From the NCBI GenBank assembly GCA_963778345.1, contig CAVZTP010000003.1:41408-105407 (forward strand): a DNA stretch of 64,000 nt, given 5' to 3'. The DNA is from an uncultured Acidobacteriaceae bacterium. GTDB lineage: Bacteria > Acidobacteriota > Terriglobia > Bryobacterales > Bryobacteraceae. Below the pieces are notes generated by a model. It had not been told where the DNA came from, did no database searches, and saw only the letters and a program-made list of their open reading frames with translations. Of this stretch, positions 7,469 through 60,519 are shown piece by piece. The position numbers were made by a program, and so were the translations under genes. Numbering within the stretch: position 1 is the stretch's first letter; every line of letters begins with the position of its first letter.

Positions 7469-7792
7469 ATGGCACGGCCAACTTACGAAGTTACGGCGAA
7501 GATGCGGAAGATGGTGAAGGCCATGGCATCGCTGGGCTGCCGGCATGAAGATATTGCCCGGATGATGGAGATGACTCCGAAGACATTGCGCAAACATTTT
7601 CGGAGCGAGCTGGATACGGGCGCGATCGAGGCCAACAACAAGGTAGTGCAGTCGCTGTTCGAAATGGCGACGACGGGGAAGAATCCCACAGCGGCGATTT
7701 TCTGGGCGAAGACGCGGTGCGGATGGCGAGAGCGGTCGCGGGATGCGGACCCGTCGCCGGAAACGCCACAGATCATTGTGAAAGTGGAATAG
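7469..7792 (+). CDS. phage terminase small subunit-like HTH protein
   Basis: MARPTYEV... starts 13 nt after GGAGG. It has an HTH-like segment (CRHEDIARMMEMTPKTLRKH) and AAIFWAKTRCGWRE, which is typical of small terminase proteins. It lies immediately upstream of the large subunit. Confidence 0.55.
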   Translation: MARPTYEVTAKMRKMVKAMASLGCRHEDIARMMEMTPKTLRKHFRSELDTGAIEANNKVVQSLFEMATTGKNPTAAIFWAKTRCGWRERSRDADPSPETPQIIVKVE

Positions 7793-9100
7793 TTGGCGCG
7801 GAAAGAGAGAGCGGCCGCGACGACGATCGGACTGCGTCCAGCCCAGATGGAGGTGTTCCGGTGTCCGAGGCGGTTTCGGGTGCTGGTGGCGGGACGGCGA
7901 TTCGGAAAGACGCAACTGGCGCTGGTGGAACTGCTGCGGGCGGCGGCTGAACCGCAACGGAGCGTGTGGTATGTTGCGCCGACTTACCGGCAAGCCAAGC
8001 GGATCGCATGGAACCGGTTGAAAGAACTGACGCGTCCGTTCTGGAGCGGCCGGCCGAACGAGAGCGATCTGAGCATTGTGCTGCGCGGGGGCGGGACGAT
8101 TGCGCTGAAGGGCGCTGACCGGTACGACTCGCTGCGCGGGAATGGATTGGATTTCGTGGTGCTGGATGAGTATGCTTCGATGCGGCCGGAGTGCTGGACG
8201 GAGGTGCTGCGACCGGCGTTGAGCGACCGGCGGGGAGGAGCGCTGTTCATGGGGACGCCGCAAGGAGCGAATCATCTGCGCGATCAGTTCGAACAGGCGC
8301 AGCGGGATATGGAGTGGCAGGCGTTTCAGTTCACGACGATCGAGGGCGGGAATGTGAGCGAGGAAGAACTGGCCAGCGCGGCGCGGGCAATGGACGAGCG
8401 GCTGTACCGGCAGGAGTTTGAGGGGTCGTTTGAAAGCGTCGGGCATGGGCTGGCGTATTACGCGTTTTCACGGACGGAGAACGTGCGGAGTTGTGAGTAC
8501 GATCCGCGGCTGCCCTTGATCTGGTCACTGGATTTCAATGTGCATCCGATGTGTTCGGTGCTGCTGCAGCGGGAGGGGGAAACGGTATACGTTCTGGATG
8601 AAATGGTTTTGCACAATGCGAATACGCCGGCGGCTTGCGAGGAACTGCTGAAGAGAACGGCGGGGTGGCAACGCGCCGGGGCGGTGACGATGGAGGTGTA
8701 TGGCGATGCGAGCGGATATCAGCGACGCACTTCGGGGACGGGCACGGACTGGAGCTTGATTCGGGAGTTTTTCGGAGGACGGAGAGGACAGTTCCTGGCA
8801 TCGGTTCGCGCGGGGAGCACGAACCCGGCGGTGCGGGATCGGGTGAACGTGGTGAACAGCCGCTTGTGCAGCGCGAGCGAGGAGCGGCGATTGTTTGTGG
8901 ATCCGCGATGCCGGGAATTGGTGCGGGATCTGGAGCGCGTGCAGTGGTGCACCGACGGGGCGGGGCAGCCGACGAGCGAGTTGGATAAGTCGGATCGGAT
9001 GCGGACGCATGTTAGCGATGCGGTTGGGTATTATCTGGCGCAGGCGTTTCCGATGCGGGGACGGATTGGGCTGCAGAACGTGGGGAGAGTGGTGTGGTAA
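7793..9100 (+). CDS. phage terminase large subunit
   Basis: 435 aa. Walker A-like VLVAGRRFGKT, Walker B FVVLDEYASM, and a C-terminal nuclease-like region (WSLDFNVHPM...YGDASG). Confidence 0.8.
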   Translation: MARKERAAATTIGLRPAQMEVFRCPRRFRVLVAGRRFGKTQLALVELLRAAAEPQRSVWYVAPTYRQAKRIAWNRLKELTRPFWSGRPNESDLSIVLRGGGTIALKGADRYDSLRGNGLDFVVLDEYASMRPECWTEVLRPALSDRRGGALFMGTPQGANHLRDQFEQAQRDMEWQAFQFTTIEGGNVSEEELASAARAMDERLYRQEFEGSFESVGHGLAYYAFSRTENVRSCEYDPRLPLIWSLDFNVHPMCSVLLQREGETVYVLDEMVLHNANTPAACEELLKRTAGWQRAGAVTMEVYGDASGYQRRTSGTGTDWSLIREFFGGRRGQFLASVRAGSTNPAVRDRVNVVNSRLCSASEERRLFVDPRCRELVRDLERVQWCTDGAGQPTSELDKSDRMRTHVSDAVGYYLAQAFPMRGRIGLQNVGRVVW

Positions 9101-9103
9101 GGA

Positions 9104-9145
9104 GGAGACAGGAGTCAGGAGACAGGAGACGGGAGTCAGGAGACA
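9104..9145 (+). repeat. heptamer tandem repeat (GGAGACA / GGAGTCA / GGAGACG) x6
   Basis: Six consecutive 7-bp units read directly: ggagaca ggagtca ggagaca ggagacg ggagtca ggagaca. Confidence 0.9.
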
Positions 9146-9147
9146 GA

Positions 9148-9516
9148 GTGATTAGCCAACGACCGGCGGCTCGAACATTTCGCGATTTGATTGTTTGGCG
9201 AAAGGCGCATGAGTTTGTGCTTGGCGTCTACCGCTTCACTGGCTTATTTCCTAAGCACGAAATGTATGCGCTCTCGATGCAAATGCGTCGCGCTGCAATA
9301 TCGGTGCCGGCCAATATCGCCGAGGGTTTCCGAAAACGCACTAAGCCCGACAAGGCGCGTTACTTGAACGTCGCGGAAGGTTCACTCGAGGAGAGCCGCT
9401 ATTATTTGATCCTGGCAGTGGATCTTGGATACGGGGATACCGCTGAGTTGATGGCCCTCCTTGAAGAAGTGAGCCGTCTCCTTCACGCATACGGCAGAGC
9501 GATTCTGGCTCCTTGA
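9148..9516 (+). CDS. four-helix-bundle protein (23S rRNA intervening-sequence protein family)
   Basis: FRDLIVWRKAHEFVLGVYRFT...QMRRAAISVPANIAEGF...YLNVAEGSLEESRYYL matches this family. The in-frame GTG at 9148 gives the usual ~120-aa size. The upstream part of ORF 9094 is only translated heptamer repeat. Confidence 0.8.
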   Translation: MISQRPAARTFRDLIVWRKAHEFVLGVYRFTGLFPKHEMYALSMQMRRAAISVPANIAEGFRKRTKPDKARYLNVAEGSLEESRYYLILAVDLGYGDTAELMALLEEVSRLLHAYGRAILAP

Positions 9517-9832
9517 GGAGAAGGTTTGCCGATCCTGCCGGCTCGCATTCAGCAAAGAGTTCGGCGATAATGCTTTTGATCGATCTACGGGGACTTTCGA
9601 ACGGCCTATCTCGACCAACATGGGCCCTCAATTGGCTTGCCGATACGGAGGGCGCGGGGTCTTTTTTTCTCGCCGCCATGAATTATGTACAAGTTTAGCT
9701 GAAGGAGTTGTACTAGTGTTAAGAATCTGGCTGGGGCGAGATTCGCTGGGCGACGGCGAATCAGTTATGCGGGATTGTGACGATAGCTTCCGAAGCGCGG
9801 CGGCCCGTGTTTACGGTCAATACGTCTTGCAA

Positions 9833-10354
9833 TTATTTTGTGGACATGTCGGAGAACAGGTCGGCAACGGCCAATTTCACGTCGCCCGCAGTTAATTCTT
9901 CTCCGATGCCAATCAGCTTGAACGAATCCGGACCATGAGACTCGAAGCAAACCTGGGCGGCCGGGTCGATCACCCAGCAATGAGGGACGCCCCACGCATG
10001 ATACTGTTTGCATTTCCGGAGCAGTTCGGATTGCGTTTGGCCGGGCGATAGAATTTCTACGCACAGCAGGGGGGTCGAGATCAGATAGCCGCGCTGATCC
10101 GTATCGAAGGTTCCGGGGTGCGTGAGTGTGACGTCCGGAACGAGCCATTCCTCGCCGCGCGCGAGACTCCATTCCTGATGAACGGTTGCGCCGATGCGGC
10201 GGGCGATCGGCTTCAACCGCAAAACAACGTTGAACTGGCACTCGGAATGAGTCTTACCGCCCAAAACACGCTCCACGAACTGGCCGTTGACGAATTCAAG
10301 GTATCTGTCGCGCTCGAGTTCCAGATCGAGCGGAGCTGAAACATGGGTTGCCAT
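9833..10354 (-). CDS. Uma2-family (DUF820) PD-(D/E)XK-like endonuclease
   Basis: 173 aa with the family pattern EFVNGQFVER...GKTHSECQ...VPDVTLT...PLLCVEILSPGQ. Confidence 0.75.
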   Translation of the reverse strand: MATHVSAPLDLELERDRYLEFVNGQFVERVLGGKTHSECQFNVVLRLKPIARRIGATVHQEWSLARGEEWLVPDVTLTHPGTFDTDQRGYLISTPLLCVEILSPGQTQSELLRKCKQYHAWGVPHCWVIDPAAQVCFESHGPDSFKLIGIGEELTAGDVKLAVADLFSDMSTK

Positions 10355-10378
10355 TTGCGCCTACAGTTGATTGTAGGC

Positions 10379-10487
10379 GCTTCAATGAGGCCGCGATCCG
10401 GTGGATCGCGGAAATATGCGGCTCTCCTACGTCACACATGCACAACACCCAGCTTCAATTTGGTTGCCTGAAGCAAAAACTTGCCGC
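10379..10487 (-). other. crRNA-like mini-array: degenerate repeat remnant (only ATTGAAGC retained), 36-nt pseudo-spacer, 37-nt repeat-like element
   Basis: The minus strand of 10415..10379 reads ATTTCCGCGATCCACCGGATCGCGGCCTCATTGAAGC. The array repeat is AATTCCACGATCAAATGATCGTGGCCTCATTGAAGC. The last 14 nt are identical and the stem is preserved by an A:T to G:C double change. A second ATTGAAGC (minus strand, 10459..10452) lies exactly 36 nt upstream. Confidence 0.6.
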
Positions 10488-10563
10488 ATGACCGGATGAT
10501 AGAACATTTCTGGGTCTTTTGGAAGTGAGATGTAGAGAAGAGAGGAACTTTTTAATTTGTTGT

Positions 10564-10593
10564 TGACACACATCATTATATAACGATACACTT
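10564..10593 (+). promoter_or_regulatory. candidate sigma70-type promoter of the cas operon
   Basis: TTGACA (10564-10569), 18-nt spacer, TACACT (10588-10593), in an AT-rich stretch ~30 nt upstream of the cas7 GTG. Confidence 0.35.
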
Positions 10594-10623
10594 GGCAATT
10601 CTACACATTAGAAAGCAGGTACC

Positions 10624-11841
10624 GTGTCATTTGAATTCTCAGATTTACTGGCTGCAGTAGGTGGGTCGGCGGCGGCGTTCCGCTCTATTACACAATTACA
10701 GCCCGTGGGTGGCGTGGGGGATAAGGTCTTTCCCGTCACGTTCGCAGGGGGTGTCTATGCAAGAGAAAAGCGCCGCCTCGACGGCGCTGATGTTGATTGC
10801 GTGCTCATCGATTCGGTGCAGTCGCAAAGCAACAGGGCAGAGGAAGCGCTCATGCGTGCAATTGAGAGGGGCCAACTCTCTTTGCCGCTCATCGAAGTGG
10901 ATTTCACTTCGGCGAACGAAAAGCTGCGGAGCCCGTTGCCGAACCTTACCAGTCTTGAAGTGCCTCACAGACTCGCTGATGCAATCCTGCGCGACAGCCA
11001 GTTAGAAGATGGAACCCGATTTTCAAAATCTGCGTACGCAAAACAATGGAGCCGTTCGAATGTCTGGAACGCCAGTGCCGTTTATGAACTGTGCCCGACG
11101 GCCTTGGTGTTTGGCATGTGGGGCTCTCCCGAGAAGCCCGGCGGTTTGGGCGCCAAATTCGAGCGTGCCTATGTTTCGGAGATCGTGGCAGTCGATGTGG
11201 TCGGGAACAACGGAGCGCCAACCGACCGGGAAGGCCGGAACGACCTCACCCAAAAGCGAGCAGGATTCCGAATCGATCCACTCGGGTCAAGTAAAAGCGT
11301 CGCTCTGAAGCAACGAGACGACGGGGGCTTTGAAGTCGGAAGTGGAAAACTAAGGCCCTCCGAGTTAAATCACGGCAACATTCTGTTTGAGTCTTCGAAC
11401 ACAGGGATTCGGTTCCGTTACGCGGAACAAACAACCGTGGTCTCACTAGGAGCGCTGCGGAAACTGCGCTTTCCCGTAAACGGTCGCACCGACTCCAGCA
11501 CCGACGACGCAGCTCGGGCAGTTTTGGCCGCTATGGCCCTGTGCGCCGGTGTCTTGTCGGCTGAGACAGGAACGAGTTTGCGTTCACGCTGCCAATTGTG
11601 GCCGGTCGCCGACCGCGAATGGGAGTTGCTTGAAAAACCCGGGCAGGATGCTCGGAGATTCAGCTTGCAGGGACAGCGAGCAATCGCCTTGTTGAACGAG
11701 GCCGTCACCCATGCCGAAGGTGCGGGATTGAAATGGATGAAGCACAAGCTGGTCTTGAAACCTACGCCTGAACTGGTTGAACTAGTGCGACAGAGCCAGG
11801 AAAACGCCGCGAAGGAGAAGGGTGAAGGAGAGGCGCAATGA
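10624..11841 (+). CDS. csb1: type I-G/I-U Cas7 (Csb1, GSU0053 family)
   Basis: 405-aa intact ORF. It carries LQPVGGVGDKVFPVTFAGGVY, PTALVFGMWGSPEK, GAKFERAYVSEIVA, FRIDPLG and NHGNILF, which are characteristic of Csb1/Cas7u. It is the first gene of the cas operon. Confidence 0.85.
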   Translation: MSFEFSDLLAAVGGSAAAFRSITQLQPVGGVGDKVFPVTFAGGVYAREKRRLDGADVDCVLIDSVQSQSNRAEEALMRAIERGQLSLPLIEVDFTSANEKLRSPLPNLTSLEVPHRLADAILRDSQLEDGTRFSKSAYAKQWSRSNVWNASAVYELCPTALVFGMWGSPEKPGGLGAKFERAYVSEIVAVDVVGNNGAPTDREGRNDLTQKRAGFRIDPLGSSKSVALKQRDDGGFEVGSGKLRPSELNHGNILFESSNTGIRFRYAEQTTVVSLGALRKLRFPVNGRTDSSTDDAARAVLAAMALCAGVLSAETGTSLRSRCQLWPVADREWELLEKPGQDARRFSLQGQRAIALLNEAVTHAEGAGLKWMKHKLVLKPTPELVELVRQSQENAAKEKGEGEAQ

Positions 11842-13367
11842 CGGTCCTGGGCATTCGATATTTGCGAGGGTACTCGGTATCTAGGGATGCGGCGAAGGAC
11901 TGTCCAGAGTGGCCGCCGCATCCTGGCCGTATATTCATGGCGCTCGCGGCGGCGCATTTCGAGACCGGGGAGGACGAGGCCGAACGTCGCGCACTGGAGT
12001 GGCTTGAGCAGGAGAGCGCCCCTTCCATTGCGGCCAGTGGCGCGAATGAGAGATCGACTGTCACGACTTACGCCCCCGTAAACGACAAATCTGGCGGTAT
12101 CACTGGGCGGAGCCGACAGCCGCGTAGTTTTTCAACGGTCAGGCCCGAACGTGACGAAGTGTTTCTGATCTGGCAGGGCGACGCTGAGCAAAAAACACAA
12201 AGCGCGCTCGATCGGATTTGCCGTAGGGTAACACGAATTGGGCATTCCTCTTCATTGGTGCAGATGTGGGTGGCGAGTGGGACTGAAACGCCAGCGGCGA
12301 ATTGGGTGCCGGTCGATTCTCTGGTTCGCGATCGCATGCGTGTACCCGAGGCAGGGACTATCGCGTATTTGGAGCGCTCCTTTGCGAAGCGGGAGGCGCA
12401 GCAATACACGGTATTGCTGGATGCGATCGCGTCTGCAAAGGGAAGGGAAAAGAATCGGCTCAACAAAGAGCTAGACCAGTCTTTTCCGTTGGGCGCTCCG
12501 GGACCCACTCCGCCTCAACTGACGAAATGGCAGGGGTATGCCCCTGCCGGACGGCTGTCCGGCATAGAACCCGCGGTTCGCCGCGGGCCGTTCGATTCGC
12601 AGCTTATCGTTTTCGCGAAGGATGAAGGGCGCGCCTGGGCCTAGAGACCACGGTGCAACTACGGGTGCGTTGCGGAACGCTGCGATGAAGGCATCGGGAG
12701 AACAGCCGCCGGAGTGGTTGACTGGACATCAGGCAGATGGAACTCCAACGCTGCGCCCGCACGTAGCATTTTTTCCGTTGCCCTTCGTCGATGCGCGCCA
12801 CGCTGACGGACACGTTATGGGGCTAGCGATGGCGATTCCGCATGACCTTTCAGAAGAAGAACTTAGGAGAACTATAAGGCCCCCTGCTTTTCAAGGACAG
12901 CGGCGAAGAGCGAGTCCTTCGCTTGTGGCGTGATCGCACCAAGCAGCCGGGGATTGTGTCCAACAGAGTGGGAATGGCTTCTGCGCCGGGAAACGCGTCC
13001 GCGCCCGCCGGTTACGTTGCGTGCTGAGACATGGATCCAGGCGAGTAAGGTTTGGGCGAGCGTCACTCCCGTCGTGTTGCATCATCATCCCAAGCGCAAT
13101 CGCGAACGCGATGTTCAGCGTATTGTGATGGAGGCGTTCGAGTCAGCCCTGCTACCCTCACCTGAAGGTATAGAAATTTGCTCCGTGTCTCCGTTAACGG
13201 GCGTGGGGCATGCGCGCTCGATCCCGCATTCGATGAGGGGGGTAACTCACTTAGCCGGTATCAGACGCATGTGATCGCTAGGTTTGCGGCTCCGCTGGAA
13301 GGGCCAGTATTGGTTGGGCGCGGGCGATTTCGGGGCTATGGTTTGTTCCGGCCGTGGCGAGGAAACA

Positions 13368-13387
<20 letters not shown>
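11838..13387 (+). pseudogene. csb2: type I-G/I-U Csb2 (Cas5-Cas6 fusion, GSU0054 family), at least 3 frame changes
   Basis: The N-terminal CPEWPPHPGRIFMALAAAH is in ORF 11838..12644. HVAFFPLPFVDARHADGHVMGLAMAIP is in ORF 12622..12933. WASVTPVVLHHHPK is in ORF 12930..13274. The C-terminal HVIARFAAPLEGPVLVGRGRFRGYGLFRPW is in ORF 13178..13387. A protein-like stretch LLFKDSGEERVLRLW in a further frame near 12880-12950 suggests a fourth change. Confidence 0.8.
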
Positions 13388-16149
<2,762 letters not shown>

Positions 16150-16172
16150 GCGGTCACAAACACAGGTGCTGG

Positions 16173-17386
<1,214 letters not shown>

Positions 17387-17412: not shown

Positions 17413-19191
17413 TTGTTGGCTACTGCCCCACTGCCGCTCCATCCGGAACGGTCGCTGCCCGATTATCTTCCGGCACGAATGGTCAATGAGTTCGTCTATT
17501 GTCCGCGGCTCTTCTTCTATGAGTGGGTGGAAGGCGTATTCCGTGAAAGTAGCGACACGGTGGAGGGCTCGGCTCAGCACAAGCGCGTGGATCGCGATGA
17601 CAAGGGCATTCCGGCGGCGGATGAACTCGGAGACGAACGCATTCATAGCCGGTCGGTAACGCTATCGAGCGAAACCCTGCGAGTGATCGCCAAGATGGAC
17701 CTGATTGAAGTGGAGGATGGGGTCGCTACGCCGGTCGACTATAAGCACGGCAAGCCGCGCATGAAGGATGACCGCCTGGAGTTATGGCCGACGGACCGCG
17801 TGCAATTGTGCGTGCAGGGATTGGTGTTGCGGGACAACGGATATCGTTGCGACGAAGGCATGGTCTACTATGCGGCCACCAAGCAGCGGGTGCGGATTCC
17901 GTTCACGGAGGAGGTGGTTGCGGAGACGCTGGGCGCGATTGCAGGAGCCTGGGAGGAGGCGCGCGCCCGGGTGATGCCGCCACCGCTCGAAGACTCGCCG
18001 AAATGCGTGGGATGCTCACTTGCGCCGGTGTGCTTACCCGATGAGGTGCGGTATCTGGCGCGGCGGGCCGAAGAGCCGGATGTCGAACAGTTGCTACTAT
18101 TCGCGGCGGGAGAAGCGGCAGCGCCTAAGAAGCCCGTTCAGAAAGAAGTACGGCGATTGATAACGCCTCGGGATGACTTACGTCCGCTCTATCTGAATAA
18201 GCCTGGGCTACGCGTTGGTAAGGCGGGCGCGGTACTTCAGGTGAAAGAGAAGGATTCGCTGGTGCAGGAAGTGCGAATGAACGAGATCTGCCAGTTGAAC
18301 CTGATGGGCAACATTCAACTATCGACGCAAGCCGTGCAGGAACTGTGTGAAGCCGGTATTCCGATTTGCTACTTCTCGATGGGCGGGTGGTTCTATGGCA
18401 TCACAACGGGTATGTGCACCAAGAACATTTTCCTGCGACAGCGGCAGTTCACAATGGCGGAGCAGGCGTGGTTCTGCAGGAAGCTGGCTCGTTCCCTGGT
18501 GGCGGGGAAAATTCGGAATCAACGGACCTTTCTACTGCGGAACCATTTGGAACCTGACCGGAGGGTGATGCGCGCCCTGAAGGAGATGGCGCAAGATGCC
18601 GAGCAGTGCGGGTCGATGGAAGAGTTGCTGGGTGTGGAAGGCAACGCGGCCCGGTTGTATTTCGGTGCGTTTCAAGGCTTCATAAAGGTAGAGGCCGACG
18701 ATGAGTTGCCGGGCATTTTTCAGATGGACTTCGCGGGGAGAAATCGCCGGCCACCGCGCGATGCGGTGAACGCGTTGCTTTCGCTCGGCTACAGTCTACT
18801 GGCGAAAGATTTGACAATTGCTTGCTACTCGGCCGGCTTCGATCCGATGATGGGTTTTTATCATCAGCCGCGGTTCGGGAGACCGGCGTTGGCGCTTGAT
18901 TTGATGGAGCCGTTTCGAACTCTGGTTGTGGATTCGGCAGTGGTGACGGCGATTAATACGAAGATGGTGACGCCCAAGGATTTTGTGAGCGCGGCATCGG
19001 CCGTTGCCTTGACGGCAGAAGGGCGGAAAGGGTTTTACCGGGCGTATGAATTGCGCATGGATGCAATGGTTACGCATCCAATATTCGAGTATCGGGTAAG
19101 CTACCGGCGTTTGCTGGAAGTGCAGGTACGGTTGTTGGCTAAGTTCCTGGAGGGAGATATTGACGACTATCCGGTGTTTACGACGAGATAG
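17413..19191 (+). CDS. cas1: Cas4-Cas1 fusion
   Basis: 592-aa intact ORF. The N-terminal Cas4 part has YCPRLFFYEWVEG, DLIE/DYKHGK and the Cys cluster CVGCSLAPVC. The C-terminal Cas1 part has GNAARLYF, RRPPRDAVNALLSLGYSLL and GFYHQPRFGRPALALDLMEPFR. TTG start after GGAGG. Confidence 0.9.
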   Translation: MLATAPLPLHPERSLPDYLPARMVNEFVYCPRLFFYEWVEGVFRESSDTVEGSAQHKRVDRDDKGIPAADELGDERIHSRSVTLSSETLRVIAKMDLIEVEDGVATPVDYKHGKPRMKDDRLELWPTDRVQLCVQGLVLRDNGYRCDEGMVYYAATKQRVRIPFTEEVVAETLGAIAGAWEEARARVMPPPLEDSPKCVGCSLAPVCLPDEVRYLARRAEEPDVEQLLLFAAGEAAAPKKPVQKEVRRLITPRDDLRPLYLNKPGLRVGKAGAVLQVKEKDSLVQEVRMNEICQLNLMGNIQLSTQAVQELCEAGIPICYFSMGGWFYGITTGMCTKNIFLRQRQFTMAEQAWFCRKLARSLVAGKIRNQRTFLLRNHLEPDRRVMRALKEMAQDAEQCGSMEELLGVEGNAARLYFGAFQGFIKVEADDELPGIFQMDFAGRNRRPPRDAVNALLSLGYSLLAKDLTIACYSAGFDPMMGFYHQPRFGRPALALDLMEPFRTLVVDSAVVTAINTKMVTPKDFVSAASAVALTAEGRKGFYRAYELRMDAMVTHPIFEYRVSYRRLLEVQVRLLAKFLEGDIDDYPVFTTR

Positions 19192-19372: not shown

Positions 19373-19981
19373 AATTCCACGATCAAATGATCGTGGCCTC
19401 ATTGAAGCGTGGACTGGGGAGCGTGCCATCCTGGGAAAAGAAGCAATTCCACGATCAAATGATCGTGGCCTCATTGAAGCAAGACTTTTCTGCCGCGCCG
19501 TTTCTTCCGTTTCCGCAATTCCACGATCAAATGATCGTGGCCTCATTGAAGCAATCGAGGATGGTAGCGGAATCCTCACCGGCGGGCAATTCCACGATCA
19601 AATGATCGTGGCCTCATTGAAGCATCCCAATATTCCTGGTAGACCGTGACCGTTGTGCAATTCCACGATCAAATGATCGTGGCCTCATTGAAGCAGTTCT
19701 TCCATGATTCGGATGGACTCCAGATTGTGCAATTCCACGATCAAATGATCGTGGCCTCATTGAAGCTTTTCGAGATCAGCCGCTTCCCGCACTGCTGGCA
19801 GAATTCCACGATCAAATGATCGTGGCCTCATTGAAGCCAGACAATAATTTGACCGTGTACACGTTCGTGTGCTAAATTCCACGATCAAATGATCGTGGCC
19901 TCATTGAAGCATTTCCCGCGAACAGCGCAGAGGCGCGCGATCGCAAATTCCACGATCAAATGATCGTGGCCTCATTGAAGC
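19373..19981 (+). CRISPR. CRISPR array, 9 identical 36-bp repeats and 8 spacers (35-37 bp)
   Basis: The repeat is AATTCCACGATCAAATGATCGTGGCCTCATTGAAGC. It starts at 19373, 19445, 19517, 19588, 19659, 19731, 19802, 19875 and 19946. It has an 8-bp stem CCACGATC/GATCGTGG with loop AAAT. A possible 10th degenerate repeat begins near 20014 (GATTCACGTTC...). Confidence 0.97.
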
Positions 19982-20076: not shown

Positions 20077-20313
20077 ATGCCGACCGTGCTTCGATTGGAG
20101 GGGTTTCGGTTCTTCTTCTACAGCAAGGAAGGCAATGAACCCGCACACGTCCACGTGGAGCACCAAGAGCGGCGCGCCAAATTTTGGCTAACGCCGGTTT
20201 CCCTTGCCTGGAACGCCGGATTTAACACCTCTACCGTGACCTGGCTCTAGGCCGTGATCAGAGAACATCGAACCGCGTTTTTGGAGAAATGGAATGAGCA
20301 CTTTGCCCAATAG
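20077..20313 (+). pseudogene. DUF4160-family small protein with in-frame TAG
   Basis: MPTVLRLEGFRFFFYSKEGNEPAHVHVEHQERRAKFWL... is typical of DUF4160. TAG at 20248-20250 interrupts the frame, which then continues as AVIREHRTAFLEKWNEHFAQ to a stop at 20311-20313. Confidence 0.6.
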
Positions 20314-20545
20314 GCCAGAACCTCTGGCCGTGAACGTTACTTTCGAGACCGACTACTTCACCGTGCAACTCAACGACGGTCGCGCCCTGTCTGTCCCTTA
20401 CGTTTACTCGTCGCGTCTTGCGGAGGCGACGCCGGAACAACGCGCCGACTACCGTCTGATCGGAAGAGGCGATGGTATTCACTGGCCCCAAATCGACGAG
20501 GATCTTTCCGTCCGCGGACTGCTTTTAGGAACGCCCGCCCGTTGA
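20294..20545 (+). CDS. DUF2442-family small protein
   Basis: 83 aa. FTVQLNDGRALSVPY...LAEATPEQRADYRLIGRGDGIHWPQIDEDLSVRGLL matches the DUF2442 pattern. It overlaps the DUF4160 gene, the usual pairing. Confidence 0.65.
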   Translation: MSTLPNRPEPLAVNVTFETDYFTVQLNDGRALSVPYVYSSRLAEATPEQRADYRLIGRGDGIHWPQIDEDLSVRGLLLGTPAR

Positions 20546-20801: not shown

Positions 20802-20869
<68 letters not shown>

Positions 20870-48590: not shown

Positions 48591-50234
48591 CTAACCCCCA
48601 AAAGAGGGGACGCTTGTATAGCGGCAGGTGACTGTCATTGGGAACTCGGCGAGGCCACGAACCAAGCCCTTCAATTCCGCGTCTGGTTTGGGTTCGGTGA
48701 GGAGACTTACCAGCACGGTAACCAGCACGCAGATTAACCAGGCCCAGAGAGCGCGGTAGAGATTTTCCGCCATATCCTTGGCATCGGGAGAAAGCGCAAT
48801 CCAGGCGAGTTTACCGGGATCAGCCTTGACCATCGCATACATTCCGATGGATGAAACGGTTCCGGCCAGAAGGCCGCAGAATCCGCCTTTCGGCGTGGCG
48901 CGTTTCCATAACATTCCGAGAATGACAGTTCCGAATAGAGGCGCGATAAAGAAACTGACGAGCGCCTGCATATAATCCATGATGCTCTTGAAGTGAGTGA
49001 CGAAGTATGCGGTTCCTATGCTCACAAGCACACCAATAATGGTGCACCAGCGTCCCATACTCAGGTAGTGAGCGTCGGTTGCGTTCTTGCGCAAATAGGG
49101 CCGGTAGATGTCATAGGTCCAGACCGTGGCGAAGGCGCTCACGTTGCCGGCCATTCCCGACATGAATCCGGCGATGAGAGCAGTAATGCCTAAGCCGAGC
49201 AGTCCAGGGCCACAGTAACGCGCGAGCATCAGGGGGAGAACCTCGTTGTAGCTGTGAAGACCGGGTGCGGCGGCGCCTTCGGGGACAAGTTTGAAAGGAA
49301 GAACAGCGAGGGCCAGCAAACCGGGCAGGATCACAATCAGCGGCACGGCCATTTTGAAATAGGAGGCGATGATGGGAGCGAATTGGGCGGAACGCAGATC
49401 CTTTGCCGACATGGCGCGCTGAACAACGAGGAAATCCGTGGTCCAATACCCGCAGGCGATGACACCGCCCAGACCGAAGACAATCCCGGTCCAGTGGACT
49501 CCCATCGGATTGCCGCCGAAGGTTCCGAGAGTTCGCCACAGGTGAACGAAATCGCCATGCGGAAAATTGCGATGAATTCTATTCACGAGTCCGGACCAGC
49601 CGCCGGCTTCGATGAGTCCGAGGATGGGAATCAGCAGTGCGCCCAGCCAGATCAGGAAAAACTGCAGCACCTCATTGAAGATTGCCGCGAAGAGGCCGCC
49701 GAGCGCGACGTAAATCGCGACCGTGATGGAGGAGACCCAAATGCTGAAGTGGATGTTCCATCCCAGAACGACCTTCATCACCAGGGCCATTGCATACATA
49801 TTGATACCGGACATCAGCACAGTCATGAAGACGAAGGAGATTCCGGTGAGTGCGCGGGTGGCCTCGCCGTAGCGTAACTGGAGATATCCCGGGACCGAGT
49901 GGGTCTTCGAGATGTAGTAAAAGGGCATCATTACCAAGCCGAGCAAGACCATTGCGGGAAAAGCCGCGATCCAGTAAAAATGGGTGGCTAAAATGCCGTA
50001 CTGATAGGCGGAGGCGGCCCATCCCATCAACTCCAGAGCACCGAGGTTGGCCGACAAAAAACTCAGCCCGGCCACCCAGGCCGTCATCTCCCGCCCGGCC
50101 AGAAAGAAGTCGTTGGCGCTGGTAGCGTATCGCTTCAGGTAGAGTCCGATACTGAGCACCATCAAGAAATACACGGCGATGATGGCGATGTCCTGCGGGC
50201 TCAGCGAGATCAGCCGGCTAGCCGGTGCGGTCAT
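48591..50234 (-). CDS. sodium:solute symporter (SSS family)
   Basis: The start is taken at the ATG at 50234 (MTAPASRLISLSPQDIAIIAVYF...). It has 13 or more TM segments and FLAGREMTAW. The upstream 145 codons of the ORF are not protein-like and overlap the divergent gene. Confidence 0.88.
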   Translation of the reverse strand: MTAPASRLISLSPQDIAIIAVYFLMVLSIGLYLKRYATSANDFFLAGREMTAWVAGLSFLSANLGALELMGWAASAYQYGILATHFYWIAAFPAMVLLGLVMMPFYYISKTHSVPGYLQLRYGEATRALTGISFVFMTVLMSGINMYAMALVMKVVLGWNIHFSIWVSSITVAIYVALGGLFAAIFNEVLQFFLIWLGALLIPILGLIEAGGWSGLVNRIHRNFPHGDFVHLWRTLGTFGGNPMGVHWTGIVFGLGGVIACGYWTTDFLVVQRAMSAKDLRSAQFAPIIASYFKMAVPLIVILPGLLALAVLPFKLVPEGAAAPGLHSYNEVLPLMLARYCGPGLLGLGITALIAGFMSGMAGNVSAFATVWTYDIYRPYLRKNATDAHYLSMGRWCTIIGVLVSIGTAYFVTHFKSIMDYMQALVSFFIAPLFGTVILGMLWKRATPKGGFCGLLAGTVSSIGMYAMVKADPGKLAWIALSPDAKDMAENLYRALWAWLICVLVTVLVSLLTEPKPDAELKGLVRGLAEFPMTVTCRYTSVPSFGG

Positions 50235-60100: not shown

Positions 60101-60519
60101 AAAGAAAACGTGAAAAAAGTCTCCTCCAGATAACCAAGGCGGTCGAGGAACATTCTCTGATTTTCGAGAAAAGACGTCTCTCCGGCCAGCGCGCGGTCAA
60201 ACGCCTCGGCCAGGCTGTCCCAAGCAGACGCCCAGGTCTTTGTATAATCTTCGCCCAATGATTTTGGGTGTTTTCCCGCGCAGATAGGGCGATATCCGTC
60301 GTTGTAGATTTGAATGTGCTGCGGTCCCCAGATCAAGTTGATAGGAAAGTTCGAAGCGAGACAAAGGCTCACCGTCGTTCGCAAACTTTGAGGCCAACTT
60401 TCTATGGGTCCCAAAGGTGTGGCGGCCCAGTCTTTGGAGCGAATTGCCTCGCCCATGATGCCGCCGCCTATTAAGAAATGGCCGGCTGCAGATAGCGGTG
60501 ACTTGGATGCGTTAGGCAC
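57109..60519 (-). CDS. hybrid sensor histidine kinase with two kinase cores and an internal receiver
   Basis: 1136 aa. First core: H-box SHEFRTPL with GTGIGLALV. Receiver: LADDNADMR...DVMMPELDG. Then a PAS-like region and a second core: H-box SHDLQEPL with GTGLGLAICKKLV. Confidence 0.9.
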   Translation of the reverse strand: MPNASKSPLSAAGHFLIGGGIMGEAIRSKDWAATPLGPIESWPQSLRTTVSLCLASNFPINLIWGPQHIQIYNDGYRPICAGKHPKSLGEDYTKTWASAWDSLAEAFDRALAGETSFLENQRMFLDRLGYLEETFFTFSLSPIRDESGEVGGLFHPVTETTVQMLSQRRTRALQDLGSQASQSKTIEQACDLAITALRQYHLDLPFVMVYLLDENGKRARLTATAHLNRGTPASPELIEIGGGSPWPLDEILRTGTPCTVTGLTNLFGSLNCGPYPESPDTALVLPIVMAGFDYPAGFLIAAVSPRLPFTNEYRAFVDLIGAALTAAIVNARAYEEERKRAEKLAELDRAKTAFFSNVSHEFRTPLTLMLGPLEEMLTHRKEEFTAKRQAIDLVHRNGLRLLRLVNTLLDFSRIEANRVQAAYEGTDLSALTRDLASIFRSATEKAGLRLEVHCAKLSEPIYVDREMWEKIILNLLSNAFKFTFHGTIRVQLEEAGREVLLSVSDTGTGIPGHELPNLFKRFHRVQGARGRTYEGTGIGLALVEDLVKLHGGRVWVESTLGVGTTFRIGVPKGYKHLPAEQVHHDRKANVSLKAANIFVEEALHWLPTNCVSYRPNESTNSANRRSRRIVLADDNADMRQYIEHILAPEFEIESVSDGAQALRTIETRMPDLVLTDVMMPELDGFGLLHALRTNKSSQGIPVIMLSARAGEEARVEGIQAGADDYLVKPFNARELLARVRVNLELAHLRRELSQEEEKRRSAAEIERQWRLFDTALSHTPDSIYVFDLQGRLMYANQALLQRWQRPFSAVVGKNLDELRYPAELVAKLRIQMQEVIDRRRPIRDETALVSMNGDIEHLDYVLVPVLSQNGEVEAVAGSTRNVTGFIETNRALSRANADLQQFAYSASHDLQEPLRMVALYSQMLKKKYHGQLDSQADLIIKQCVESAVRMEGMIRDLLAYTQASCVSIAPKPPIALDEVFDSTLATLQVAIRENNAAITRGPLPVLKIEPVHLNQLFQNLLSNALKYRSERPPVIRVTADRKPQEWVISIADNGIGIEPDYRDQIFGLFKRLHTRERYSGTGLGLAICKKLVEHYRGRIWVESKVGTGSTFFFAFPAEEPQAGQQVPRGRSECLPQ

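Follow-up and report, generated by a model that had tools for sequence, protein, structure and literature searches.

RNAs of the CreA/CreR and crlRNA kinds comprise a group of CRISPR-derived regulators that are loaded into Cascade and cause repression without Cas3 cleavage through partial pairing with their targets. The CreR/CreA elements of I-B, I-E and V-A systems (Liu et al., bioRxiv 10.1101/2023.03.10.532045) are psiR1-psiS-psiR2 units located beside the cas operon, in which psiR1 keeps the 8-nt 5' handle, psiR2 keeps the 3' hairpin part, and psiS partially matches a site at or near the cas promoter that is flanked by a protospacer-adjacent motif (PAM). The crlRNA mini-arrays (Shmakov et al., PMC10120712) consist of standalone repeats forming two-repeat mini-arrays conserved among related loci, with a 5'-seed-biased partial match beside a canonical PAM, unpaired sixth positions, and toxin-antitoxin (TA) and other cargo genes adjoining them in a variable hotspot. 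The anatomy, partial matching and neighboring cargo of these units recur in the element described here, which occupies positions 10379-10459 of a 64,000-nt stretch of an uncultured Acidobacteriaceae bacterium (contig CAVZTP010000003.1, positions 41,408 to 105,407; hereafter the window) and lies next to a type I-G CRISPR-Cas operon. With a probability of roughly 80%, we interpret it as a CreR/crlRNA-type regulatory mini-array of type I-G, an interpretation that concerns the mechanism at the level of the family.

Two further groups of systems provide points of comparison. CreTA (RNA toxin, I-B) and CrePA (protein toxin, I-F) encode a harmful product whose promoter is kept repressed by Cascade carrying a CreA-like RNA as its guide. 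By analogy only, the tracr-L and scaRNA regulators of type II systems are also alike, in that a repeat-derived RNA with a short partial match makes the effector repress its own operon or host genes, although these are class 2, Cas9-based systems with a tracrRNA-derived architecture. For type I-G, formerly named I-U, the reported interference PAM is TTN, Csb2 leaves an 8-nt handle, and in the Cascade structure every sixth crRNA base is unavailable for pairing. The element class itself has already been predicted for this subtype: creA-like elements were found manually for I-D, I-C, I-E, I-F and I-U (Liu et al., bioRxiv 10.1101/2023.03.10.532045), and mini-arrays were counted in 4% of 235 I-G loci (Shmakov et al., PMC10120712, Table 1), so that the statement in an earlier note on this DNA that such elements had not been described for I-G was too strong. 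In the accessible parts of these two reports, the experiments cover I-B, I-E, V-A and I-F1, the crlRNA study analyses I-E, I-F1, I-D and I-B and lists I-G only as a table row, and neither report contains a case analysis of I-G. What is new here is the identified self-target.

The mini-array is encoded on the minus strand, at a distance of 165 nt from csb1, and is separate from the CRISPR array, which lies 9 kb away. In the direction of the presumed transcript, it comprises the 8-nt 5' handle ATTGAAGC, the sole surviving part of psiR1 (10452..10459), the 36-nt pseudo-spacer or guide psiS, TGGGTGTTGTGCATGTGTGACGTAGGAGAGCCGCAT (10416..10451), and psiR2 (10379..10415), a 37-nt repeat copy ATTTCCGCGATCCACCGGATCGCGGCCTCATTGAAGC with an intact hairpin. 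The 3' 14 nt of psiR2 are identical to those of the array repeat AATTCCACGATCAAATGATCGTGGCCTCATTGAAGC, and the distance between the handle and psiR2 is exactly 36 nt, with array spacers being 35-37 nt long. The predicted folding energy of psiR2 (-15.8 kcal/mol by RNAfold) can be compared with -12.3 kcal/mol for the array repeat. The degeneration is asymmetric, with psiR1 keeping the handle nucleotides and psiR2 the hairpin and 3' part, as in the published CreA/CreR elements: the 28 nt 5' of the psiR1 handle are 25% identical to the repeat, which equals random expectation, and do not fold (z = +0.3). The element departs from an ordinary array in having only two units, the leader-proximal of which is the degenerate one, and a spacer that matches its own neighborhood.

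On recheck, the statements of the earlier note on psiR2, the stem, the handle and the spacing all held. The 8-bp stem of psiR2 is retained through a double change from A:T to G:C relative to the array repeat, which the note had read as a compensatory change in psiR2; the double change is present, but its direction is doubtful, since G:C is the usual state in the repeats of relatives and the change may lie in the array repeat instead. Exact copies of the 12-mer CCTCATTGAAGC are confined, in the 64-kb window, to the array and psiR2. The chance expectation for this 12-mer with at most one mismatch is 0.33 per window, and the single-mismatch copies at 49670, 51334 and 62355, which show 13-18/36 identity to the repeat and no repeat context, were set aside as chance occurrences. 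An Rfam search gave no match for the mini-array; one array repeat weakly matched CRISPR-DR16, below the gathering score.

Scanned across the window, psiS matches best at a protospacer-like site on the plus strand, TGGGTCTTTTGGAAGTGAGATGTAGAGAAGAGAGGA (10511..10546), located 48 nt upstream of the handle and flanked by the trinucleotide TTC (10508..10510), which fits the published I-G PAM. This answers the search for a PAM-flanked seed match that the earlier note had proposed as a check. The match extends to 21/36 positions overall and to 19/25 over the first 25 (effective pairing, 10511-10535), where the mismatches fall at guide positions 6, 9, 12, 14, 18 and 21. A TTN-flanked site matching positions 1-5, 7 and 8 and at least 14 of 28 others is estimated to arise about 0.002 times per 128,000 positions; for sites with a TTN and the seed only, the estimate is about 0.5 per 64-kb window. 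Two other candidate targets, at 60265 (TTT PAM, 14/36) and 19270 (GTA, 19/36), were rejected as being at chance level. The possibility that the target regulates a gene between itself and csb1 was also rejected, there being no such gene in the window.

The site falls between two candidate promoters, each assigned by consensus matching only. The first, which would drive the mini-array and the gene behind it, is TTCCAA-17-TATCAT on the minus strand (10496..10524, with the boxes at 10524..10519 and 10501..10496); it is present as the earlier note had claimed and is as weak as claimed (8/12 consensus positions, under the promoter-scan threshold), and its geometry recurs in relatives, as read from their sequences (for example, TTGAGC-18-TATTAT in locus L019). 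The PAM and protospacer positions 1-14 fall within it. The second, TTGACA-18-TACACT (10563..10592, plus strand, 10/12), faces csb1, and its TTGACA box is separated by 16 nt from the end of the protospacer that is distal to the PAM. The whole 146-nt putative primary transcript of the minus strand has a folding z of -2.9; as a side observation, in its predicted fold the leader segment AUGCGGC (10483-10489) forms a helix with the guide's 3'-terminal GCCGCAU (10416-10422), both on the minus strand.

For comparison, related I-G loci (designated by L numbers) were collected: 80 from genomes, 7 from metagenomes through a scan with a single protein, and 5 by exact-protein look-up. Homologues of Csb1 are abundant in Acidobacteriota (Bryobacterales, Terriglobia), the closest being 79% identical. 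When the loci were filtered for a repeat-type hairpin with a near-match to ATTGAAGC 32-40 nt before it, units passed in 31/91 loci, a proportion that pertains to an Acidobacteriota-rich sample and stands against the 4% of 235 loci tabulated in the crlRNA study (PMC10120712). After removal of a true array, one false match and two duplicate contigs, 28 solitary units upstream of csb1 remained, most of them on the strand opposite to csb1 and 130-950 nt upstream of it. Of the repeat, their psiR1 retains 8-14 nt from the 3' end and no hairpin, and psiR2 often lacks the last five bases, which Csb2 would remove. Among 23 psiR2 sequences, the hairpin positions are 98% paired and 6/8 pairs have changed on both sides, in a set partly selected for having a hairpin. 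Asymmetric units with a TTN-flanked target of their own are thus conserved beside homologous cas operons in about 25 related I-G loci, in agreement with the conservation that the earlier note had made a test of its proposal. One locus, L034, carries two repeat-spacer-repeat units upstream of csb1 (9300-9600), one on each strand, the plus-strand unit having two full hairpin repeats.

The guides of these units point to their own neighborhoods. A search of each locus in full (up to 21 kb, both strands) placed the best guide match 21-140 nt upstream of the unit in 22/28 cases, and a TTN stands beside this nearby match in 22/22; when guides were exchanged between loci, only 12/748 combinations (1.6%) gave a nearby TTN result. 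Three further units (in L002, L021 and L031) have an equally good local TTN site. Across 25 guide/target pairs, positions 1, 2, 4, 5, 7, 10, 11 and 13 match in 96-100%, position 3 in 80% and position 9 in 52%, while positions 12, 18 and 24 match in 28% each, position 6 matches in 4%, which is below chance, and matching past position 24 is random. The first target score ignored every sixth base, which made it a possible source of the periodicity; this was rejected, as rescoring over all 24 positions keeps the troughs at 6, 12, 18 and 24 and recovers the same nearby TTN site in 21/28. The 6-nt periodic matching fits I-G Cascade because every sixth crRNA base is unpaired there, and the troughs, together with the stop at about position 24, are characteristic of a type I Cascade that binds its target without cleaving it.

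Guides and targets also change together. At least 20 distinct guide 5' ends each match their own target, and in L081, which is orthologous to the window across the entire intergenic region, both guide and target differ from those of the window at positions 2, 11, 15 and 22. The mismatch at position 9 recurs in the window, L004, L009, L014, L034, L045, L081 and L091, including unrelated guides, and positions 7, 8, 10 and 11 almost always match despite it. In most loci, the guide and target copies are inverted and 21-91 nt apart; in L004, L014, L018, L071 and L075, the target is in direct orientation. Taken on its sequence evidence, the element is real, non-random and conserved, and probably represents a CRISPR-derived regulatory RNA rather than array debris; the CreA/CreR-like psiR1-psiS-psiR2 organization put forward in the earlier note is supported by the nearby PAM-flanked target and by the recurrence in relatives.

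According to the mechanism that we propose, the weak promoter at 10524..10496 would transcribe the minus strand, and Csb2 would bind the psiR2 hairpin and cleave 4 nt 3' of it, yielding a mature RNA in which the 36-nt guide stands between the ATTGAAGC handle and the hairpin; this RNA would be loaded into Cascade (Csb1, Csb2 and Cas8g). The complex would read the TTC PAM at 10508-10510 and base-pair over about 23 nt with the protospacer at 10511-10546. Interrupted pairing that ends at about position 24 is expected to leave Cascade bound without licensing Cas3, as a roadblock in the divergent promoter region. The promoter of the mini-array itself, which would also read into the adjacent Uma2 gene, would be directly occluded, and the cas operon might be damped too, with the site ending 16 nt upstream of the csb1 -35 box. 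The most direct predicted effect would be autorepression of the mini-array transcript and of the read-through cargo; damping of the cas genes is possible and less certain.

Several observations weigh against this interpretation. The minus-strand promoter candidate is, as noted, weak; the target misses both the -35 and the -10 box of the csb1 promoter, so that autorepression of the cas genes is not assured; psiR1 lacks a hairpin and thus offers no evident route to the 5' end of the handle; a convincing target nearby is missing for L003, L048, L052 and for the second unit in L018; and about half of the closer relatives have no detectable unit. In addition, the window has frameshifts in cas3 and in csb2, the gene whose Cas6 domain is required to process the RNA and to assemble Cascade, and these make present function in this genome doubtful. 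The element also differs from CreR/CreA as described by Liu et al. (bioRxiv 10.1101/2023.03.10.532045) in belonging to type I-G and being transcribed divergently from the cas operon; in having its target upstream of the unit, in its own putative promoter, and not downstream towards the first cas gene; and in pairing over about 23 nt with interruptions instead of 11-15 consecutive nt.

The assignment of the operon to type I-G follows from the presence of Csb1/Cas7g, Csb2 (a Cas5-Cas6 fusion), Cas3g, Cas8g and Cas4 fused to Cas1, together with a 36-nt hairpin repeat whose last 8 nt form the handle. All genes of the operon are on the plus strand. The csb1/cas7g gene (10624..11841; TIGR02570) is intact, as are cas8g (16146-17096), cas2 (17096-17386) and cas4-cas1 (17413-19191), and the operon is followed by the array (19373..19981, plus strand), which has 9 repeats AATTCCACGATCAAATGATCGTGGCCTCATTGAAGC and 8 spacers of 35-37 nt. 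In contrast, csb2 (11838..13274) is split over three frames, with the Cas6 domain out of frame, and cas3g (13284..16149) is divided into at least five frame segments; relative to intact relatives, the frame path is 3, 1, 3 in csb2 and 3, 2, 3, 2, 3, 1 in cas3. These frameshifts are absent from the earlier note. The remaining long genes of the window, including genes of 1,100-1,170 aa, are uninterrupted, and the interference genes csb2 and cas3 look like pseudogenes when read from this sequence, although the frameshifts may reflect a localized assembly error. Exact look-ups of two csb2/cas3 fragment products, aimed at an independent confirmation, found nothing, and the Logan contig L083, which is identical to the window over its positions 1-420 (approximately 10221-10640 of the window), ends before the first frameshift. 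Given these frameshifts in csb2 and cas3, the circuit has probably ceased to work here, barring Cascade supplied in trans by another I-G system; that it still operates in this genome appears unlikely at best.

Among the alternatives, the one that fares best, in our view a tentative possibility, is that the unit is a CreR element in the strict sense, whose key output is autorepression of the csb1-csb2-cas3-cas8g operon, with Cas levels tuned to crRNA abundance. The 16-nt distance of the target from the promoter facing csb1 argues for this reading, as does the similar spacing of a TTGACA box beyond the target in relatives; in L075 the target overlaps the csb1 start, and published CreR targets closely adjoin cas promoters, one of them lying about 140 bp upstream of casA. 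However, the promoters concerned are predicted from consensus matches, Cascade would sit at approximately -53 to -91 of the inferred csb1 start site, outside the core promoter, and in many relatives the target and csb1 are separated by about 350-450 nt. As an observation on this interval, in L015, L017, L019, L021, L022, L026, L031, L032 and L034 it holds a leader of about 350 nt with a strong Shine-Dalgarno sequence, a conserved short Arg-rich open reading frame (e.g., MRFRRISHRPPACAGCSSRYRLRR...) and conserved GC-rich hairpins; the window lacks this segment, which could encode a small protein, a leader peptide or a CreT-like RNA.

Somewhat less favored, and in our judgment rather unlikely, is the alternative that the unit serves mainly to switch cargo in the manner of CreTA/CrePA: the guide would let Cascade keep the promoter of the mini-array-Uma2 transcript off, and loss of Cascade or its blocking by an anti-CRISPR would induce Uma2, which would act as a toxin or a back-up defence. 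This alternative shares much with the regulatory mini-array interpretation and differs from it only in which output matters. It accords with the location of the PAM and protospacer inside the minus-strand promoter and not the csb1 promoter, and with the nature and position of the gene that follows the unit. An intact gene of the Uma2 family (PD-(D/E)XK; 173 aa; 9833..10354, minus strand) lies directly downstream of the mini-array on the same strand, its start 25 nt past psiR2 with no terminator called between them, and the psiS target lies in the shared upstream promoter candidate. The product matches the Pfam Uma2 profile (8e-16) and PADLOC PDC-S03 (3e-13), the latter being a candidate defence family only.

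Between psiR2 and the gene stands a 9-bp hairpin, GCGCCTACA-ATCAAC-TGTAGGCGC (10357..10380, minus strand; z = -5.6, no U-tract), which overlaps psiR2 by 2 nt and stops 2 nt short of the Uma2 ATG. It is conserved in L081 (1307-1340), L091 (7975-7999) and L092 (6796-6820), standing 2-3 nt before the Uma2 start in all four loci, and, from its position, would either block access to the ribosome-binding region or, once Csb2 has cleaved, constitute the 5' end of the Uma2 mRNA. The mini-array is linked to Uma2 also in L081 (Uma2 79% identical) and L091 (ENA ERZ1758400), so that the psiR2-hairpin-Uma2 block is kept beside I-G operons whose gene order differs, that of L091 starting with cas3 and that of the window with csb1. 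The Uma2 of L091 belongs to the same 90%-identity cluster as that of the window and has the same neighboring terminase-like gene; its block carries a different guide, with a TTC-flanked target (7733-7768) mismatched at positions 6, 9 and 12. Comparison of L091 with window positions 7793-10624 suggests that the cas operon was replaced or rearranged beside a retained mini-array-Uma2 block.

The slot behind the unit is occupied by different genes in other loci: HicA in L002, TacA and a GNAT toxin in L026, a resolvase in L019, and cas2-cas4/1 in L009, L021, L013 and L002 (in the last after the inserted HicA module). The protein-coding gene directly 3' of the unit and the TA toxins at the equivalent position in relatives resemble CreTA/CrePA, the I-D mini-array cargo hotspots and the I-F protein-toxin module CrePA likewise resemble this varied slot, and protein toxins or TA cargo under mini-array control have been published for I-F and I-D. 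In contrast to these systems, the toxicity of Uma2 is only putative, and the cargo is inconstant, being Uma2 here and adaptation genes, a resolvase or nothing recognizable in relatives; Uma2 here and cas2-cas4/1 in relatives are also points of difference from the crlRNA mini-arrays. L092 retains the hairpin and Uma2 without a recognizable, presumably decayed, mini-array. Moreover, csb2 and cas3 are broken while Uma2 is intact, a combination that a working addiction module should prevent unless a second source of Cascade exists elsewhere in the genome; loss of Cascade is thus evidently non-lethal, and because csb2 is disrupted with Uma2 intact, a working addiction module is unsupported in this genome.

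A further idea, also rather improbable in our estimate, is that the mini-array is a sensor of Cascade activity placed on the promoter of interchangeable cargo, with the mismatch at position 9, in addition to those at 6 and 12, designed to hold Cascade without recruiting Cas3. Were this true, loss or titration of Cascade or its inhibition by anti-CRISPRs would switch on back-up defence or spacer acquisition, the cargo being the Uma2 nuclease here and HicA/TacT-type toxins or the adaptation operon cas2-cas4/1 elsewhere.

Erosion of a second, divergent array to two repeats, with the unit as what is left of it and without function, is very improbable. Full arrays opposite to and upstream of csb1 do exist in L013, L014, L021, L072 and L077, and the cas operon of the window is itself decaying; but it is the leader-proximal repeat that has degenerated, units of two repeats are present in about 25 loci, where guide and target co-vary, a TTN PAM is found and matching follows a 6-nt period, and the divergent arrays of relatives lie at least 3 kb from the unit, past cas2-cas4/1, so that it is not the tail of a second array, an outcome the earlier note had asked to be checked. 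The weakest alternative, a plain inverted repeat that has nothing to do with Cascade and folds as RNA or DNA into a hairpin, serving as an attenuator or as a palindrome bound by protein, would account for the inverted copies in most loci but is exceedingly improbable given the TTN on the 5' side of the target copy only (22/22 nearby best matches), the bias of matching towards the guide 5' end with its periodic troughs, the five units with a direct-orientation target, and a transcript that, from the proposed start site, would omit the complementary arm.

Some observations concern the wider surroundings. Tandem heptamers AGGAGAC (about 6 copies, 9103-9146) and GACAGGA (9 copies, 20803-20867), the same unit in the same orientation, bracket an 11.7-kb segment that runs from Uma2 and the mini-array through the cas operon and the array to a DUF4160/DUF2442 gene pair located 3' of the array (20077-20545). 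Just beyond Uma2, at 7793-9516, lie a terminase large-subunit-like gene and a 23S rRNA-intervening-sequence (four-helix bundle) gene. The terminase-like, four-helix bundle and DUF4160/DUF2442 neighbors suggest a mobile or defence-island setting.

To our knowledge, type I-G is the least studied of the type I subtypes, and no regulatory crRNA-like RNA has been analyzed for it. This locus and its approximately 25 relatives form a comparative set with a defined guide, PAM and target and with natural co-variation. The matching rule that they display, by which positions 1-5, 7-8, 10-11 and 13-17 pair, positions 6, 12, 18 and 24 are free and none pair past 24, predicts together with the co-variation how I-G Cascade could be programmed for repression without cutting, which would be useful for ongoing I-G genome engineering. 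For genome annotation, it follows that such units should not be labeled orphan or eroded arrays. The slot behind the mini-array is a cargo hotspot for Uma2, TA toxins and adaptation genes, which opens to testing the idea that, by means of self-targeting guides, CRISPR effectors protect themselves or govern the acquisition of spacers.

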